In this document: positions 1 to 46,686 of the stretch, piece after piece
Numbering within the stretch: position 1 is the first letter of the stretch
Layout: every line of letters starts with the position of its first letter
Source: Rubripirellula sp.
Lineage (GTDB): Bacteria; Planctomycetota; Planctomycetia; Pirellulales; Pirellulaceae
Assembly: GCA_965216875.1 (NCBI GenBank)
Contig: OZ244207.1
Location: 4,672,001 to 4,736,000 of the forward strand
Length of the DNA stretch: 64,000 nucleotides
Direction: 5' to 3'
Position numbers and translations under genes: made by a program
The notes under the pieces: model-generated
What the model saw: only the letters and a program-made list of their open reading frames with translations
The model's database searches: none
What the model was told of the DNA's origin: nothing

Positions 1-415
1 GATCTCGACCCCAACGATGGTCACCTCGTCGGAAAACGTGAGCGACACGATGAATGTCGCTTTGGCGTGTGCAGCGGCCTTTCAAGTCGTTCACATGCAG
101 AATTCAGCGGAACCGGGAAGCATCACTTCGGTCGCGTTGCCCGGCCTCGGCGCCAACACCGGCCAGGTCCCAGTCGAAATCTGTGCTGACTTGATGTGGA
201 GCGGTTATAGCCTCTTTCGACGCCGCGGGTTTGAGAGCTTCCAGGCCATGCGGGAAGCCCTTGAATTCGAACTCGGTGACCTGAGTCCGGGATCTTTGCC
301 GACGCCCGGCCCGATCGAGCTTCCAGAAAATGATGCCTTCCAACCACCCAAACCCGAAGCCGCCGCCCCGCCAAGTGAGAAGGTGGCCGAAGTCGATTTC
401 GACGACTTCGAATAA
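1..415 (+). CDS. Macro-domain (Appr-1''-p processing family) protein, 5' end outside the window
   Basis: Frame is open from position 2: ISTPTM...NVALACAAAF...ITSVALPGLGANTGQVP. This matches the macro-domain 'PTM' and 'SIAxPxLGxGxG' motifs. It ends in a Pro-rich acidic tail. Confidence 0.75.
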   Translation, partial: ISTPTMVTSSENVSDTMNVALACAAAFQVVHMQNSAEPGSITSVALPGLGANTGQVPVEICADLMWSGYSLFRRRGFESFQAMREALEFELGDLSPGSLPTPGPIELPENDAFQPPKPEAAAPPSEKVAEVDFDDFE

Positions 416-467: not shown

Positions 468-2957
468 ATGCTGTCACCTGTTCGCCTTTACCGACCCAGC
501 GGCCACGAGCGTGTGGCAATCGTTTCGGTCGAGGCCGCGTATGGTGACGCTGGAAAGTGGCTCGTTCGCATCGCGTTGGGCGTGTCGTCGGATAAGTTGC
601 ACACGGGCACAACCCTTGGACCCTTTGCTGATTCCGAGCTCGAGGCACGTTTTGCCGAAACCGTAAAGGAACTTCGCGATCAGGGCTTTGGCGAAGGGAC
701 ACGTGAAGACTGGTCCGTCCTCCTTGGTGATGCCGATGCACGCGTGCGGGCAAGGACAGCGCAACGCATCGGTTGGCGGCAAGACCGCAAGTATGTCGAC
801 ACCTTGCTCGCACGATTACCTCTCGCTGTCGACGACCTTTGTTCGATCGTTGATGCGTTGGGCGCGATCGGTGATCCGAAAGCGGTCGACGCTGTCAAAG
901 AAATCGCCCAACGGAAACTTCTCTCACGACGACGAAGCGGTGTCGAGGCACTGCGAAACCTCGGCGACGCAGCCGTGCTCGACCAGGTTCTTTTGGGAAC
1001 CTTCCAAGCTTTATCTCCAACCATCCAATCGGCACTTGATCAATCGATCCCAGATGTGGGCACGATCGCAGATGCGATTCGAAGCGTCGAATCGAAACGA
1101 CTCGCCTTCACTCTCGACCAAGTTTACGAACTCAATCGTCCCGTCGCCAACGAAGCGATTCGGTCCATCATCGTCGACATGAACTTTGATCAACCGTTTG
1201 TCTGGCGGTATATCAAAAGCATCTTCAAGCGTTCAATGCTTCGACACGACCCTGTCATGTTTGGCTGGCTCGCCTACAAGATCGAAGCCAAGGGACGGTT
1301 GACCACCGGGCGTTCCGAAGCGGTCAAGTCGGGTTACGACGGCGTCGAGCGGACGACATTGGTTTTTGGTCGACGAACCCAGCGATACGTTCGGCGTTCT
1401 GCTTGGCGGTACCTGCGAAACCTTGCCCGCTACCGTCCGCACCTCTACACCGAAGCCGCAGCCGAAGCGGTTGTTCCGTACGTGGTGCAAGACGGCCGCC
1501 AACCGCGCGGCTTGTACGGTCAATTCTCGGACTGCTACCTGCTACATCGAGTTCTTTTGAACGGGTCGTCACGATTTAGCTACGACGATCGGCGGATGCG
1601 ATTTCGCTTCCGCAATGCGCTCTCGCATCAAACCCCCGATCAGACTCGCGAAGAAGCGTTCCCACATCTATGGGATCGCTACCCCAAGCCCTACTTGCGA
1701 GTCCTCGGCGCAGCCTCGCTCGAACTCGCGCAGACCTTTGCCCGAGATGGTTTCGCTCGTCACGGCGACCTCCTGACGACCGCTTCCAACGATGAATTGA
1801 TTCGGCTGCTCGAGGGCAACAACGAAGAAGTCCTGGGACTGGTCCTAAATGAAATTGAATCGCGATTTGATCCCAATGCACCGAACTGGGCCTTGATGGA
1901 CCGTTGCGTCGGGGATGAGCGGGAAAGCGTGCTTGTCCGTGCACGATCGTGGATTGAACAGTCCCACTCCGCTTGGACCGCCGATCATCATCGTACCCTC
2001 CGTTACCTTGGTTGCCGCGATCGTCAATTGCGCGAGATCGTGATCGCGAGAACGATCGATTGCCTCTCAAGGGATGAAGCGTCGAGACGTGGTTTCGTTG
2101 ATCGAATCCTGCCGTTGATGCGAGAACCCGAAACGCAAGGACTGGAGGCTGTCGGGCGAGTTGCTCGGGAGTGCTTGACCGCGGAACTAAGTCAGCGGCT
2201 GTCGCAAACCGAGCTGCTTGCGATGATCTTCACCGCTTCGCCGTCGATCCAGGCGGTTGCAGCGCATGTCTTTTGCCTGAACGATTCTTCGTCCGTGACC
2301 CTTGAGCAGATCTTCAGCATCGCGTCACACGACGTTGCTGCGGTACGAAAAGCCGCGCACGATCTGATGGCAAGGCAAACCAATCGGCTTAAGAGTGACC
2401 CTGACACACTCTTCATGATGCTTGAAAGTCGCTGGCCCGATTCACGCTTAATCGCTAAACAGTTCTTGGAGAAACACATCGATTGGTCGGAAGCGAGTTT
2501 TGATCGAGTGATGGGGCTGCTCGATTCAAACTTGGTCGATGTACAGGATTTCGGCCAAGAGATAGTTCAGCAGCAGTGGCAGCAGCTTGATCCAGTGCTG
2601 TTGGTCAATCGACTTTGCGAACACCATGACCAAAACATGCGTCGCTTCGCTTTTGGACTCGCCCAGAACCATCTTCCCGAAGGCGCCGATGCTCTTGAAT
2701 CGATCGAGCACTTCGTTCGCGTCGTGATCATGGAGATCCATCCTGACCAAAAGACACGCGACCAATTGATCGCATTTCTCGTCCAGCGCGGCCTGCAGGA
2801 TGCAGAACAGGCCGCCATTGCGAGTCGCTACCTCGAGATGATCTTGCCCACTCAAGGGCAAAGAGTGTTCGAGAGGGTGCTTGCCGGAATGACAAGGCTC
2901 AAGTTGCGTTGGCCCCAACTTGAATTGCCATTCAATTTGCAGGAGTCGGCATCGTGA
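468..2957 (+). CDS. ARM/HEAT-repeat protein with possible degenerate WGR-like N-terminus (retron accessory protein)
   Basis: 829 aa, Leu/Ala-rich helical repeats (DADARVRARTAQRIG, DALGAIGDPKAV, ASHDVAAVRKAA). Stop overlaps the next start (GTGA). Confidence 0.8.
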   Translation: MLSPVRLYRPSGHERVAIVSVEAAYGDAGKWLVRIALGVSSDKLHTGTTLGPFADSELEARFAETVKELRDQGFGEGTREDWSVLLGDADARVRARTAQRIGWRQDRKYVDTLLARLPLAVDDLCSIVDALGAIGDPKAVDAVKEIAQRKLLSRRRSGVEALRNLGDAAVLDQVLLGTFQALSPTIQSALDQSIPDVGTIADAIRSVESKRLAFTLDQVYELNRPVANEAIRSIIVDMNFDQPFVWRYIKSIFKRSMLRHDPVMFGWLAYKIEAKGRLTTGRSEAVKSGYDGVERTTLVFGRRTQRYVRRSAWRYLRNLARYRPHLYTEAAAEAVVPYVVQDGRQPRGLYGQFSDCYLLHRVLLNGSSRFSYDDRRMRFRFRNALSHQTPDQTREEAFPHLWDRYPKPYLRVLGAASLELAQTFARDGFARHGDLLTTASNDELIRLLEGNNEEVLGLVLNEIESRFDPNAPNWALMDRCVGDERESVLVRARSWIEQSHSAWTADHHRTLRYLGCRDRQLREIVIARTIDCLSRDEASRRGFVDRILPLMREPETQGLEAVGRVARECLTAELSQRLSQTELLAMIFTASPSIQAVAAHVFCLNDSSSVTLEQIFSIASHDVAAVRKAAHDLMARQTNRLKSDPDTLFMMLESRWPDSRLIAKQFLEKHIDWSEASFDRVMGLLDSNLVDVQDFGQEIVQQQWQQLDPVLLVNRLCEHHDQNMRRFAFGLAQNHLPEGADALESIEHFVRVVIMEIHPDQKTRDQLIAFLVQRGLQDAEQAAIASRYLEMILPTQGQRVFERVLAGMTRLKLRWPQLELPFNLQESAS

Positions 2958-4627
2958 TTTTTGAGGCGAAGTACGGCGGCCGCAGCGCAATCGTCAACGG
3001 CTTGCAACAAGGCGATGTCCGGTTTGCAACCAACCTACTGCGTGAAACGACGTACTTTGAAGGCAACCTGCTAAAACCACTCGCGTTTCGCGAAGCGCTT
3101 GCCGCACTTTATCAAGTCGTCGTCAGCGACTTTAAGTATCGCCCGAAGGACCGGTTCGAATTCCAAGAATGGCTCAAAAAACAGGATGATCAATTCCTGG
3201 CCGGATTGGCTGGTTCAACCGAAGCCACGCGTGAGAAACTGCAAACACTTGAGTCACGCAAAACGGTTCTTGACGATGCGCGCCGCAATCGACTGCGTCC
3301 CTTCTACCGCGCGCGACGAGAGTTTTTCGAGCACATCTATCACAATGAATATGAGTTGATGATGTTGCTCGATCCGGTGATCACAGTGCACCCGGACGAG
3401 CTTTCGTTTGAAGCCTTTTCGAAAGACGAAAGCACCTACGCGAGGCTTTCGACTGGCTACGATCTGTTTGGCAACGTTGGCGACTTTCAATGCGGAACGA
3501 CCAACATTGACTTCAGCTTGCAGCTGCACAATGAACTCCAACGAATGCGTAGCTACCGTCGCACTCACTTCACCGTCAATCCGAGTGGACTCACGGTACT
3601 CGACCAAGACTCAGGACACATCGTCCAGGAAAAGAAGATCGACCTTCCCGACTCGTGGATGAAGGGTTTTCTTCAGGTCCATGCCGTGATGGCGATGAGT
3701 TTGACACATGTGCGAATGAAACCGGTCGACCTCTACAACCTCTGCCGTTTCCTTCGCCGCCACCGGGCAAAGGAATCGCCGCGATCGATCCGCTATGAAC
3801 TCGAACCTGGACGGCGCGGGCGATTGGTCCTCGAACCGTGGGACCATGAAATCGAATTGTCGACCGTTTACGAGGGGAGCAAACCCGAATCGATTCGCAC
3901 CTGGGGACGGGACCGACTGCGGACGCTGGAAAAACTGATCCCCGTTTGCGACCAAGTCGACGTCTACCTGGCCGGCTATGGGATGCCAAGTTTTTACGTG
4001 CTGCGGATGGGGGCAATCGTTTTCACCCTCGGATTGTCGGGCTGGACGGACAACGACTGGACCGGCGGCACAAGCTTTGAACAGCTCACTCGGCGCGTCG
4101 ATGTTGATGGACCACAGTTATTCCAAATCTACGAATCGCTTCGAGAGAAACGATTCGCAAACGAACAGGACTTGGCGGCGAAGACTTCACTTAGCATCGA
4201 GCAATGTCGATCCGGCGCATCCATGTTGTGCCAAGCGGGACGGGCCATGTTCGATTTGGCATCGAACGTTTTTCGACACCGTGACCTACTCCATTCGCCG
4301 TTCGATCTTCAGGCAGCCAACCGCACCGTTCAACGAGCGGTCGACGAAGCCAATCCAAATGCAAAGGCAGCCCAACAGATTTACGAAGTTGGCAATGCAC
4401 GATTGATCGCACGTCGCCCCGTCCAGACAGGATGGAAACTCTCAGGCAGCGTCAAAGGATCAGACCAACAACGTGTTCGTCCTTTGTTGCACGTTGATCA
4501 CGAAGGCAAAATCATTGAAGCAACGTGCACGTGTCGCAACTTCAAAGAGTCAAAGTTAACCAAAGGCCCCTGTGAACACATGCTCGCGTTAAGATTGGTT
4601 CACATGGCCCGCTTGGAAGCAGAATAA
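2954..4627 (+). CDS. Winged-helix + SWIM zinc-finger protein (retron accessory protein)
   Basis: C-terminal CTC-x12-CEH SWIM motif (ATCTCRNFKESKLTKGPCEHMLAL), preceded by a wHTH-like segment (EQDLAAKTSLSIEQCRSGASMLCQAGRAMFD). GTG start is coupled to the upstream gene. Confidence 0.85.
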   Translation: MIFEAKYGGRSAIVNGLQQGDVRFATNLLRETTYFEGNLLKPLAFREALAALYQVVVSDFKYRPKDRFEFQEWLKKQDDQFLAGLAGSTEATREKLQTLESRKTVLDDARRNRLRPFYRARREFFEHIYHNEYELMMLLDPVITVHPDELSFEAFSKDESTYARLSTGYDLFGNVGDFQCGTTNIDFSLQLHNELQRMRSYRRTHFTVNPSGLTVLDQDSGHIVQEKKIDLPDSWMKGFLQVHAVMAMSLTHVRMKPVDLYNLCRFLRRHRAKESPRSIRYELEPGRRGRLVLEPWDHEIELSTVYEGSKPESIRTWGRDRLRTLEKLIPVCDQVDVYLAGYGMPSFYVLRMGAIVFTLGLSGWTDNDWTGGTSFEQLTRRVDVDGPQLFQIYESLREKRFANEQDLAAKTSLSIEQCRSGASMLCQAGRAMFDLASNVFRHRDLLHSPFDLQAANRTVQRAVDEANPNAKAAQQIYEVGNARLIARRPVQTGWKLSGSVKGSDQQRVRPLLHVDHEGKIIEATCTCRNFKESKLTKGPCEHMLALRLVHMARLEAE

Positions 4628-4636
4628 GAACATGAA

Positions 4637-4897
4637 GATAGAAACGGAAAGGGAAGGGGAGTTTGGTTACGAGGCTTAGCAACCCGTCTGGTGATACGCC
4701 AGACATGGCACCGTGCTCTCCATTGTTCACGTGTCCGGTCGCCACCCACGACAAACGACTGGTCCGGCCGACGCTGGGTAGGAACCACAGGTTCCCGCCG
4801 GCCATCGGACCAGATCGTTTGTCGTTTTAGTTGACCGGCCACGTCCCGAGGCTGTACGTAAACCCGAGCCGACTCCTCTTTCCTTTCCGTTTCTGTC
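4637..4897 (+). ncRNA. Retron msr-msd non-coding RNA
   Basis: 27-nt inverted arms 4637-4663 (GATAGAAACGGAAAGGGAAGGGGAGTT) and 4871-4897 (GACTCCTCTTTCCTTTCCGTTTCTGTC) pair fully, with 4 G-U wobbles. Contains a short hairpin GTCTGGTG-ATA-CGCCAGAC (4686-4704) and a long hairpin 4729-4844. Sits directly upstream of a retron RT. Confidence 0.85.
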
Positions 4898-4925
4898 GAT
4901 CGCTCGACCAATTTTGGATGCAATC

Positions 4926-6308
4926 GTGGCTGACAGCGAAAAGGCCAAACTCTATCAACGTGTCACTCAGGCTCCTGATTGGTGGGTGCTCGAACGGATG
5001 CAACTGCATGGGTACTGGCCTGAACATGAAGGCCTGCCCCCCGATCCGCCGGACGAGCTTGCCGAGCGACAACAGCTCGAAAAGGAGATCGCGCAGCTTC
5101 GCGAACAAGATTCTGTCAACATTGATCCTGACGAAGCGCTCAAACAAGAGCGTGTCCGGAGGTTGAAGGAAAGTCGCGAACGACGCGAGCAGCGCAAAAA
5201 AGAGCGGGCCCAACAAGCGGCTGCGCGGCGTGAACGGTGGCTGACCACGGCAGAGACCACCATCGTTCATGCGGGAGACGGGCACAGCGCCGGCTTGCAA
5301 CAAACGTTGTCAGACACCGCCCGGCTCGAGCGACTCGGGCTCCCAACATTGCATCGCAGCGAAGAACTTGCGGACGCAATGGGAATCGAATTGGCGACAT
5401 TGCGATGGCTAACGTTTCATCGACGCGGCGCAGCTCTGGTTCACTATCGACGCTACGACATCGACAAAAAGACCGGGGGCGTGCGCAACATTTCGGCACC
5501 GCGTCCGGCAATCGCAAGTGCACAACGCTGGGTTCTTGAAAACGTCTTGAGCCCACTCGATACATCCGACGCTGCTCACGGTTTTGTCAAGCAACGAAAC
5601 ATCGTTTCCAATGCCGCGCCCCATACCGGCCAGAAGATCGTGATCAACATGGATATGGAAAACTTCTTTCCATCAATCACGTTTCGTCGGGTGAAGGGAC
5701 TTTTTTGCCAGCTTGGTTACAGCGAACATCTCGCCGTCGTAATGGCGCTCCTTTGCACCGAGCCACCAAGAGTCGCGGTGGAACACGCCGGAAAAGTCAT
5801 GCACGTTGCAATTGGCGATCGCGTGCTGCCGCAAGGCGCCTGTACGAGCCCCGCGATCACGAACTTGATTTGCCGAAAACTTGACGCTCGTTTGCAGGGA
5901 TTCAGCGAGAAAGTCGGATTCGCCTACACGAGGTATGCCGACGATCTGACATTCTCCGGTAACGACTCGTCCAAAGTGGGCAAAGTCTTGCGGATGTCGC
6001 GACAGGTCCTGAGCGATGAGGGCTTTAAGGAACACCCAACCAAAACGCGCATCATGCGCCGCGGTCGCCGGCAAGAAGTGACGGGGGTCGTCGTCAACGA
6101 AAAGCCTGCAGTAGGACGTCGCGAGTATCGGCGATTGCGAGCGATCTTGCACAACGCCGCCAAACACGGGTTGGAAAGTCAGAACCGATCGAATCATCCC
6201 GCCTTTGCCGAACACCTTCGCGGCCAAGTCGCTTTCGTGCAAATGATTGACCCGGCAAAGGGGGACAAGTTGAAAGCGGACTTGGACAAAGTTCTCGGCG
6301 CACGTTAG
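4926..6308 (+). CDS. Retron-type reverse transcriptase (Mx162/Sa163-like)
   Basis: Motifs: YADD (TRYADDLTFS), LPQGACTSP, DMENFFPSI, retron region X NAAPH and region Y QEVTGVVVN, plus a charged N-terminal extension. Start is either GTG 4926 (GGA upstream) or TTG 4914. Confidence 0.95.
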   Translation: MADSEKAKLYQRVTQAPDWWVLERMQLHGYWPEHEGLPPDPPDELAERQQLEKEIAQLREQDSVNIDPDEALKQERVRRLKESRERREQRKKERAQQAAARRERWLTTAETTIVHAGDGHSAGLQQTLSDTARLERLGLPTLHRSEELADAMGIELATLRWLTFHRRGAALVHYRRYDIDKKTGGVRNISAPRPAIASAQRWVLENVLSPLDTSDAAHGFVKQRNIVSNAAPHTGQKIVINMDMENFFPSITFRRVKGLFCQLGYSEHLAVVMALLCTEPPRVAVEHAGKVMHVAIGDRVLPQGACTSPAITNLICRKLDARLQGFSEKVGFAYTRYADDLTFSGNDSSKVGKVLRMSRQVLSDEGFKEHPTKTRIMRRGRRQEVTGVVVNEKPAVGRREYRRLRAILHNAAKHGLESQNRSNHPAFAEHLRGQVAFVQMIDPAKGDKLKADLDKVLGAR

Positions 6309-6333: not shown

Positions 6334-7428
6334 CTAGTCGAACAGCCCAGGTTGATTTTGAGGCTTTGCACCGTCGCCTTGCTCGTCCTGCGCTGTCGTT
6401 TCGGGCGTCGCCGATTGACCGGTTGGTTCAGTTGGATTGACCGGTAGGCGAGTCTTTGTGGGACGCGACGGCGGCGCTGCCGGCGTCGGCTCGGATGCCC
6501 TCACATCAAGCAAGGCGTCGATGGCGGGATCCAAAAGATCGCGACGGGCAATGCCTTGTAGCCATTGTTCAGGCATTCCGCGCGTTCCCCAATATGCCCC
6601 AGCGATCTGTCCGCAAACGGCGCCGGTCGTGTCAGCATCATCACCGAGATTCACCGCATCCAGCACCGCTTCGCGAAACGTGTCTGCTTTGTGAAACGCC
6701 CACAACGAGGCTTCCAAGCTATGAACGACGTAACCTGACCCTCGAATCTCAGGGGGCTGTCGGACACGAAAACTCCCCTCAGCAATCTCATCAATCGCTG
6801 GATGCAGCGGCTCAAGATCGCGAATCGCTTGCAGCGGTCCCCACGTCGGCGACAGCACTTCATCGCGCGGAACTCCCTTGATCAACCCGCACACGATCAA
6901 TGTCATGTAGCGACAGGCCGATCGGCACTGGTCACTCGCATGCGTGGGAACGCTCGATTGATCCGCATACTGCATCAACACATCAAGATGATCCGGATAG
7001 AGATCAAGAAACCTCATCGGAATTGGCGCCAGCCGCATGATCGAGCCATTACCGCTTGAATAGTCATCGCGACTCGCACAGGACCAAGGGTCGCCTTCGC
7101 GATCGAACCTCGACAACGCGCTGCTGACGGTCATCCCAATGTCGAAACAACGACCGATGACACTGTATTGGCCCTCGCGGCGCCAGGCGATGTAGCGTTT
7201 CAATTGGTCGGACAAGTCCCAACCACACTTGACGATACTGTCGGCAAGGGCGAGCGCCATGCTGGTATCGTCGGTCCACTCGCCTGGATCGAGTCCGTGT
7301 GGACCTCCGGCGCGAAACCCCGTCACAGGTGGAAAAGTTCCGGGCGCTTTGAACTCGACCGCTGCACCGAGCGCATCACCAATCGCCATGCCCAGGAATG
7401 TTCCACGTAACCGACTTTCTATGTACAT
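6334..7428 (-). CDS. ADP-ribosylglycohydrolase (DraG/ARH family)
   Basis: GMAIGDALGAAVEF, WTDDTSMA, GNGSIMRLAP and NLGDDADTTGAVCGQIAGA motifs, then a disordered C-terminal tail. Confidence 0.95.
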   Translation of the reverse strand: MYIESRLRGTFLGMAIGDALGAAVEFKAPGTFPPVTGFRAGGPHGLDPGEWTDDTSMALALADSIVKCGWDLSDQLKRYIAWRREGQYSVIGRCFDIGMTVSSALSRFDREGDPWSCASRDDYSSGNGSIMRLAPIPMRFLDLYPDHLDVLMQYADQSSVPTHASDQCRSACRYMTLIVCGLIKGVPRDEVLSPTWGPLQAIRDLEPLHPAIDEIAEGSFRVRQPPEIRGSGYVVHSLEASLWAFHKADTFREAVLDAVNLGDDADTTGAVCGQIAGAYWGTRGMPEQWLQGIARRDLLDPAIDALLDVRASEPTPAAPPSRPTKTRLPVNPTEPTGQSATPETTAQDEQGDGAKPQNQPGLFD

Positions 7429-46366: not shown

Positions 46367-46686
46367 TCTTGGCCTGAGCCGAACGTGCTAGCGTCGGGTC
46401 CCTCTGAGATGCGCAAGACGAGGTAAGGCCAAGCCGCGCCGTTTGTAGTCCAGCCTTTAGGCGGTTGGTGAGAAGATTCCGGCTAAAGCTCGGTACTACG
46501 AACGAGCCACTCAACGAATCGCAGCCTTGCCGCATGGTACGCACTCTTGGCCTGAGCCGTACGCGCTAGCGTCGGGCCCCACAGAGATGCGCTAGACGGT
46601 TAAGGCCCGACGCTAGCGCGTTCGGCTCACGAGAGCGTAGCTACGATGAGTAAATGGCCTGGCCGCTTACGCGAACGCGGCTCAAA
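46367..46686. repeat. BIME-like REP cluster
   Basis: Duplicated CTCTTGGCCTGAGCCG..GCTAGCGTCGGG..GAGATGCGC..TAAGGCC (46367, 46544), an intact GGCCCGACGCTAGCGCGTTCGGCTCAC, and GTAGTCCAGCCTTTAGGCGG..CCGGCTAAAGCTCGGTACTAC. Confidence 0.85.

Follow-up and report, generated by a model that had tools for sequence, protein, structure and literature searches.

Type XIII retrons include the first retron ever found. Here we describe a member of this type in a 64,000-nucleotide stretch of DNA from Rubripirellula sp. (contig OZ244207.1, positions 4,672,001 to 4,736,000; called the window, with positions counted from its first letter), in which a first-pass annotation had proposed a retron noncoding RNA (ncRNA) at 4637-4897. 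In the available text of PMC7736814, type XIII corresponds to reverse transcriptase (RT) clade 10 and contains Retron-Mxa1/Mx162, Mxa2/Mx65, Sau1/Sa163 and Nex2/Ne144. These retrons have in common with the window locus a clade-10 RT with a long N terminus, a SWIM protein with a CxCx12CxH finger, an upstream HEAT/ARM gene, and a long-armed msr-msd RNA with one long msd rod. The type has already been counted in Planctomycetota (n = 26; PMC13712802). A type XIII retron from Chitinophaga (Mestre-1673) gives rise to branched RT-DNA in E. coli, and the best RT-DNA producers include clade 10; the 17 type XIII rows in the available text of that study contain no planctomycete (PMC10849725). No functional study or mechanism of type XIII retrons was found in our literature search.

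By its gene context and by comparison with homologous RNAs, the element at 4637-4897 was identified as the msr-msd RNA belonging to an intact type XIII retron (Mx162 family). It probably acts as a working template within a unit coupled to a PARP gene. The three protein genes of the retron are as follows.

468..2957, + strand, HEAT/ARM solenoid protein, 829 aa (PADLOC WGR_XIII 8.5e-92, HEAT-ARM_XIII 3.3e-64)
2954..4627, + strand, SWIM protein, 557 aa (PADLOC SWIM_XIII 4.1e-190; Pfam SWIM; SWIM finger CxCx12CxH)
4914..6308, + strand, retron RT, 464 aa from TTG 4914 (PADLOC RT_XIII 8.9e-167, next model 2e-113)

The assignment to type XIII, a type left unnamed in the first-pass annotation, was made because all three proteins match type XIII models and the gene layout is that described in PMC7736814. 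RT_XIII, the clade-10 model, was the best PADLOC model for the RT, whose motifs NAAPH (residue 233), YADD (341) and EVTG (388) were kept in 10 of 10 sequences. The N terminus is long, with Pfam RVT_1 beginning at residue 183; from the starts of homologues, GTG 4926 is a likelier start codon than TTG 4914. The SWIM protein has both features of type XIII cluster 114, a winged helix (residues 383-449) and CxCx12CxH, as read in the translation. The HEAT/ARM gene precedes the SWIM gene, as is characteristic of type XIII, and its product gave no Pfam WGR hit. A model of this protein (pLDDT 88) contained a solenoid and a small N-terminal beta/alpha domain, and a fold search returned generic solenoids only. 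By topology and analogy only, the N-terminal domain may be WGR-like; HEAT proteins of a sister clade gave weak Pfam WGR hits at this domain. The genome yielded a single RT hit and a second, distant SWIM homologue (27% identity) at C1:5965168-5966274.

Structure of the template RNA

The ncRNA occupies the 287-nt gap between the SWIM and RT genes. Its parts, several of them predicted, are listed below.

4637..4678, + strand, a1 arm, perfect at 4637-4663 and then an interrupted duplex up to TTA 4676-4678
4679..4679, + strand, predicted branch (priming) G, context TTAG*C, invariant among aligned copies
4686..4704, + strand, msr hairpin of 8 bp (4686-93/4697-4704) with a 3-nt loop, all cells paired
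4705..4728, + strand, linker, with a conserved GTG-like motif near 4713-4716 and TCAC at 4727-4730 in the alignment
4729..4844, + strand, msd rod of 116 nt with covarying stems and conserved internal-loop motifs (CGCCA-like, GCTGGGT, AGTTG)
4845..4858, + strand, template for the 14-nt 5' lead of the RT-DNA, which is single-stranded; G4858 is the first base copied
4859..4897, + strand, a2 arm, from TAA 4859-4861 to the perfect part 4871-4897

The first-pass annotation had described 27-bp arms with four G-U positions, and all 27 pairs between 4637-4663 and 4871-4897 can form (23 Watson-Crick and four G-U, at 4639/4895, 4653/4881, 4657/4877 and 4663/4871). The figure of 27 bp holds for the perfect outer part; the a1/a2 duplex passes 4663 and continues through bulges to TTA 4676-78 and TAA 4859-61. 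The nested stems and msr-type hairpin that it had listed were likewise recovered, the rod stems lying at 4729-33/4840-44, 4735-40/4833-38, 4748-58/4815-25, 4759-66/4806-13 and, at the apex, 4781-86/4790-95. Folding z-scores were -10.0 on the + strand and -7.1 on the - strand, and in neither case was the value matched by any of 200 shuffles. The msr hairpin is the probable recognition hairpin of the RT, and reverse transcription probably stops within the linker.

Long arms by themselves are no rarity in this genome, where 24 perfect stems of at least 24 pairs occur at spans of 150 to 400 nt; one of the 24, a long-range inverted repeat with 26 perfect pairs, is found at 46375-46629 of the window (genome C1:4718375-4718629). 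A profile search of the genome with the ncRNA found a single copy, at 4637-4897. An Rfam search, in a library that lacks the published type XIII covariance models (Firmicutes, Ne144, Mx162/Mx65), gave no significant match (chance hits only, best E 7.2), promoter and terminator scans detected nothing exceeding shuffles, and no terminator was listed at the ncRNA.

Conservation and covariation of the RNA

Relatives were sought in sets of 61, 401, 401 and 401 related genomes (overlapping samples) and in metagenomes, and the RTs recovered fell into three groups. Searches with a single protein found two loci in genome contigs, one in metagenomes and none in viral contigs. The relatives of the ncRNA-RT locus belonged to Planctomycetota. 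RTs of the window's group were 51 to 66% identical to the window RT, and the clade had a support of 97 in a quick tree of 31 rows. The core alignment comprised 12 RNA copies from 11 loci, a 26-row alignment added the sister clade, and three more copies were held out; one copy (L049b) was omitted from the 26-row alignment owing to an insert, and L086 and L088 lacked a whole RNA at contig ends.

The structure used for the covariation test was that of the window copy, and as the fold of one member it is favoured relative to slid controls; 83.5% of cells paired in the 12-copy alignment, compared with 33 to 45% in slid controls. Two-sided changes were detected in 36 of 51 pairs, a level reached in none of 500 shuffles, and the covariation score was 0.46, compared with 0.18 for shuffled and at most 0.21 for slid alignments. 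The homologous upstream regions, in which the first-pass annotation had suggested looking for covariation, thus carry a conserved and covarying structure. Pairing was 100% across the alignment in the msr hairpin, the apical stem and the inner a1/a2 helix; the msr hairpin had two pairs with two-sided changes and three with one-sided changes. Rod length was 115 to 119 nt in 14 of 15 copies, the remaining copy (L049b) being mis-parsed, and a further 14 copies, taken from 13 other loci, had the same structure and spacing in front of the RT.

A 99%-identical strain, represented by one contig, differed at three positions of the ncRNA. Two of these changes, G4653A and G4871A, each convert a G-U pair of the arms to A-U, and the third, C4683T, lies in an unpaired linker. 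In the arms 39 of 467 pairs were G-U, compared with 22 of 652 in the rod; this scarcity in the rod would be expected of a segment that also has to pair as DNA. Gene context, covariation and strain variation together bore out the identification of the element as a retron msr-msd RNA. An RNA-level pairing of 4712-16 with 4854-58, present in the single-sequence fold, was broken in most relatives and was dropped.

Two tandem ncRNA copies were found ahead of one RT at four loci (L049:1965-2636, L031:2903-3391, L032:881-1459 and L033:2910-3402). The copies share a common scaffold and differ in rod sequence, and one RT may make two multicopy single-stranded DNAs (msDNAs) at these loci. A third planctomycete type XIII clade (L009, L012, L035-L040, L042, L045 and L047) had a different conserved ncRNA upstream of the RT, in which a1 also ends right before a G (TAAG or TCAAG contexts). 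A more distant RT clade without SWIM hits (L013, L015 and L017-L020) had arms of 16 to 20 bp upstream of the RT, spanning ∼170 nt, and these are likely to represent another retron RNA family. No clear arm pair was detected in the 700 nt scanned at L010, L034 and L048, whose RTs have a longer upstream open frame; by eye, the extra N-terminal segment of these RTs resembles a small open reading frame (ORF) behind the second PARP in L073.

Predicted branch G and msDNA

The TTA/TAA helix of 3 bp at the inner end of the a1/a2 duplex was kept in 12 of 12 copies. Within it, A-U was exchanged for C-G in L083, G-U in L087 and U-G in L080 and L082, and the middle pair was swapped to C-G in a held-out copy (L153). 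G4679, directly after this helix, and C4680 did not vary in any of the 12 copies, nor in any of the 26 when the sister clade was included; G4679 was also kept in all three held-out copies. TAGC is the commonest retron priming context (PMC6868368; PMC10849725). The first-pass annotation had placed the branch G at 4665-4674, and this position was not upheld: no G was conserved there, the numbers among the 12 copies being 3 for G4665, 10 for G4666, 4 for G4671, 6 for G4673 and 8 for G4674. Close to either end of the RNA lies a short direct repeat (GAGGCT in the window, GAGCCT in the sister clade). Extra RNA-DNA pairing through this repeat, with a branch at G4673, was considered and rejected, since closer relatives do not keep the repeat.

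The distance from the equivalent of G4679 to the first template base was 179 to 182 nt in 13 of 15 copies and 185 and 196 nt in a tandem pair; in 15 sister-clade copies the corresponding span was 176 to 183 nt. The lead of the RT-DNA was 14 nt in 13 of 15 copies and 13 nt in one, with one copy mis-parsed. Since the DNA must end between the msr hairpin and the rod, the predicted RT-DNA, starting opposite G4858, would be 131 to 154 nt long, consisting of the 14-nt lead, the 116-nt rod and a short tail; the termination of reverse transcription is itself unreadable from sequence (PMC8989520). The msDNA of 130 to 150 nt foreseen in the first-pass annotation is compatible with this bound. The predicted branch G and template start make the ncRNA ready for cloning and test.

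Linkage to PARP, macrodomain and ADP-ribosylglycohydrolase genes

Three genes for the addition or removal of ADP-ribose lie next to the retron, one of them outside the window and one partly inside it.

C1:4670173-4671618 (outside the window), + strand, WGR-regulatory-catalytic PARP, 481 aa (Pfam PARP 1.7e-33, PARP_reg 3.9e-18, WGR 1.4e-9)
1..415 (genome C1:4671693-4672415), + strand, macrodomain gene, 240 aa, 3' part in the window (Pfam Macro 1.5e-13)
6334..7428, - strand, ADP-ribosylglycohydrolase (ARH), convergent with the RT gene (Pfam 3.8e-71)

The gaps along PARP, macrodomain, HEAT, SWIM, ncRNA and RT are 74, 52, -4, 9 and 16 nt. A PARP-macrodomain pair was present directly ahead of the HEAT gene in 12 of 15 loci of the window's RT clade (G000, G874, G1003, G862, G969, G973, G1009, G895, G904 and G1166, plus G847 and G763 across contig breaks). 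The RTs of these loci are 50 to 79% identical and the outer neighbours differ. In five of them an ARH gene, 47 to 54% identical in its product to the window ARH, lies directly upstream of the PARP gene, and promoter-like TTGCA-17-TATNNT sites were seen by eye ahead of ARH in five loci. In the 401-genome sample, PARP was found in 11 of 11 genomes that the RT search placed in the clade and in 5 of 390 others; one of these five (G895) carries a frameshifted member of the clade, and the RT cut-off may have missed other broken members that are without PARP. In a phylum-wide sample the sole new PARP (1 of 320) again heads a full retron operon, in another class, and the PARP-linked loci therefore span two classes of Planctomycetota. 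In the midpoint-rooted tree, PARP-adjacent rows are found throughout the RT clade, its earliest branch among them, and the three rows without an adjacent PARP are dispersed. Because of this distribution, one gain of the PARP link followed by losses would fit the data.

The PARP has WGR, regulatory and catalytic domains with the H-Y-E triad, a sequence architecture of the DNA-dependent (PARP2-like) kind; H and Y were kept in 10 of 10 sequences and E in 9 of 9 covered sequences. Its best solved match was the human PARP4 catalytic region (6.8e-53), and PARP2 matched over residues 46-449 (8.9e-31). The family is large, with 829 hits among 8000 scored, some labelled Myxococcota, and a plasmid search returned 15 distant PARPs with <33% identity. 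Pairwise identities of PARP and RT were correlated (rho 0.67 over 28 linked pairs); this was not counted as co-evolution, since kin share ancestry. Inspection by eye revealed no LexA-type box that was consistently present ahead of the PARP gene. A lexA gene lies directly upstream of PARP in G969 (L112:4342-4971).

A different WGR-PARP was found in the sister clade, directly behind the type XIII RT, in 2 of 11 loci (G293 and G344, of one genus).

L002:8673-12775 and L073:992-2199, sister-clade WGR-PARP loci

This second PARP is 34% identical over 151 residues to that of the window clade. It is followed by an ORF of 237 to 239 aa without a Pfam hit (L002, L073), and in G293 (L002) an ARH-macrodomain-like fusion lies nearby on the other strand. 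Overall, the gene order suggested that PARP, macrodomain and ARH probably belong to the same unit as the retron in this lineage.

Unrelated genes have been inserted between ncRNA and RT in G030 (L005/L076) and between SWIM gene and ncRNA in G866 (L120). The closest RT relative (66% identity; L078:7565-9371) has the ncRNA and RT alone, with no SWIM, HEAT, PARP or macrodomain hit within 8 kb on either side.

A predicted clamp fold in the SWIM protein

A model of the SWIM protein (pLDDT 78.5) had a PCNA-like clamp protomer at residues 34-365, with a helical insert, followed by the winged helix. The protomer matched 3aix_A with a Z of 21.2 and an rmsd of 2.8 over 232 aligned residues at 8% identity, unrelated folds beginning at a Z of 9.7, and Foldseek matched the protein to clamps at 1.9e-10. 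The modelled structure thus resembles a two-domain clamp protomer, a shared fold that shows no function. PCNA, 9-1-1 and beta clamps have this two-domain protomer in common with the SWIM protein over ∼232 residues; the SWIM protein differs from them in its low identity (8 to 16%), long helical insert, and fused winged helix and SWIM finger. As regards DEDE, a transposase-like motif and candidate catalytic centre of the type XIII SWIM protein, acidic residues D140, D148, E153, D158, E159, D186 and E226 were invariant in 23 sequences. In the available text of PMC7736814 the type XIII SWIM protein was proposed to be transposase-like, whereas here it models as a clamp, and no transposase fold was present among the top 50 structural matches. 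No clamp loader was seen at the retron locus.

Proposed mechanism and alternative explanations

In the mechanism that we propose, the RT would bind the msr hairpin, prime from the 2'-OH of G4679 and copy from G4858 toward the 5' end until it stops within 4705-4728. The product would be a branched, 2'-5'-linked RNA-DNA whose DNA, of the length predicted above, ends in a short tail paired to RNA. By analogy with known retron chemistry, an RT-primed branched msDNA of this kind is very probable. The RT, the msDNA, the clamp-fold SWIM protein and the HEAT scaffold may form a complex that holds or hides a DNA rod of fixed length. If the rod were cut or displaced, through DNA damage or by phage proteins, DNA ends would become accessible to the WGR domain, a type of domain that senses such ends, and the PARP would be switched on; the active enzyme would ADP-ribosylate targets and spend NAD, leading to cell arrest. 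The PARP would be the output enzyme, and the macrodomain and ARH would be erasers that limit leak. Gating of the PARP by a cut or released rod is a tentative proposal. In retron toxin-antitoxin systems directed against phage, an effector restrained by RT-msDNA is set free by the phage.

Several observations weigh against a working template within a PARP-coupled unit. Two middle helices of the rod paired in just 49% and 62% of cells in the window-derived register; this probably reflects misalignment or register shifts, because an independent consensus fold pairs that region better. The retrons of G464 and G849 have no adjacent PARP, and PARP and macrodomain genes lie elsewhere in these genomes. 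L078 consists of ncRNA and RT alone, and G822, G903, G945 and G987 have PARP without the window's retron lineage, three of them with other, unlinked type XIII retrons. Neither partner therefore needs the other as a neighbour. PARP or macrodomain hits were absent from the nine other sister-clade loci examined. The counts of adjacency are not independent, because the loci share one ancestor, and frameshifts in the PARP-linked loci G1003, G1009 and G895 are either assembly errors or decay. In addition, host-like GC (0.55 versus 0.563) and housekeeping neighbours are unlike a typical defence island.

As an alternative, an ordinary type XIII retron could have been joined once by a self-contained writer-eraser module of PARP, macrodomain and, in some loci, ARH, the two being co-inherited without biochemical coupling. 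A single origin accounts for all adjacent cases, in G464, G849 and G945 the PARP-macrodomain pair is separate from the retron, 4 of 16 PARP genomes lack the window's retron lineage, and published type XIII retrons are without PARP in the available text of PMC7736814 and PMC13712802. Such hitch-hiking is possible without being the probable explanation: adjacency has been kept in 12 of 15 loci despite the divergence of the RTs and the differing outer neighbours, gene gaps are tight, promoter-like sites precede ARH, and a second, unrelated PARP lies beside a sister-clade RT. The partners could alternatively be coupled for DNA-damage or stress signalling rather than phage defence, with the msDNA, as a built-in DNA ligand or decoy, determining the threshold at which ADP-ribosylation is reversibly switched on. 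The PARP2-like architecture, the two erasers and the clamp fold point to DNA-end handling, the lexA gene of G969 and the host-like GC agree with it, and type XIII follows host phylogeny more than other types do (PMC7736814). Against this, the patchy distribution (16 of 401 and 2 of 321 genomes) is more like that of a conflict system than that of a core function, a lexA neighbour was present at a single locus, and other retron types tested so far are, in the available literature, phage-defence systems; we regard signalling as rather unlikely.

The remaining alternatives concern the RNA itself. It could fold and bind the RT and not be copied into msDNA here, or priming could occur from a G in 4665-4674. 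In the available text of PMC10849725, no RT-DNA was visible in E. coli for 36 of the 98 retrons newly tested; in the single-sequence fold, the pairing probability of 4676-78 is only ∼0.5 and G4679 sits in a weak alternative pair. The intact RT motifs and the scarcity of G-U pairs in the rod, together with the contrast between an invariant G4679 and the variable Gs upstream, make both versions improbable. That the element is a repeat, terminator or attenuator with no relation to the RT is very improbable and, provided that the homologues are correctly aligned, is refuted by the comparison among them; the genome does have 24 long perfect inverted repeats of similar span, but this element is single copy, recurs with the same structure and spacing at 13 other loci, and lies where the terminator scan was empty. 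A working template in a PARP-coupled unit remains our preferred reading, and it offers a new lead to what type XIII retrons do. Loci without PARP, the solo ncRNA-RT locus and loci with two RNA copies provide natural controls.

Comparison with known systems

The sequence evidence places the ncRNA as a new member of a catalogued retron class, and the PARP-linked variant was not found in print. A literature search, to which subscription papers and the PMC7736814 supplement were out of reach, returned no paper that connects a retron to a PARP or to a clamp fold. PARP, ADP-ribosylation and macrodomains are unmentioned in the available text of PMC7736814 and PMC13712802, retrons are unmentioned in PMC3417536 and PMC9503650, and the available text of PMC5966428 mentions neither Planctomycetes nor gene context. 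The window locus differs from type XIII as listed in the available text of PMC7736814 in having PARP and macrodomain genes directly upstream and ARH nearby, none of which are listed for the type. Its branch context is TAGC, compared with CAGC or GAGC for Mx162, Sa163 and Mx65 (PMC6868368).

The linkage of PARP, macrodomain and retron, kept across two classes, joins the question of type XIII function to that of bacterial PARPs, and both come down to whether the PARP is controlled by msDNA. Bacterial PARPs have been described as scattered, with no known function, and that of Herpetosiphon, which has the triad, is DNA-activated (PMC4245714). If the PARP is gated by the retron, the Mx162 family would have its first effector and bacterial PARPs would have a role; the locus would then be a bacterial unit in which a PARP4-like catalytic domain and a clamp fold are combined with an RT ribonucleoprotein. 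DarTG and similar pairs resemble the PARP-macrodomain arrangement in that a writer gene is followed directly by a macrodomain gene. Here, in contrast, the writer is of the PARP type and is joined to a retron, and the macrodomain matches DarG only weakly (6.6e-4). PARP2/PARP3, the PARP4 catalytic region and the PARPs of Herpetosiphon aurantiacus and Clostridioides difficile CD160 have WGR, regulatory and catalytic regions and the H-Y-E triad in common with the window PARP, which differs from these PARP2/PARP3-type and bacterial enzymes in being encoded in front of a retron operon.
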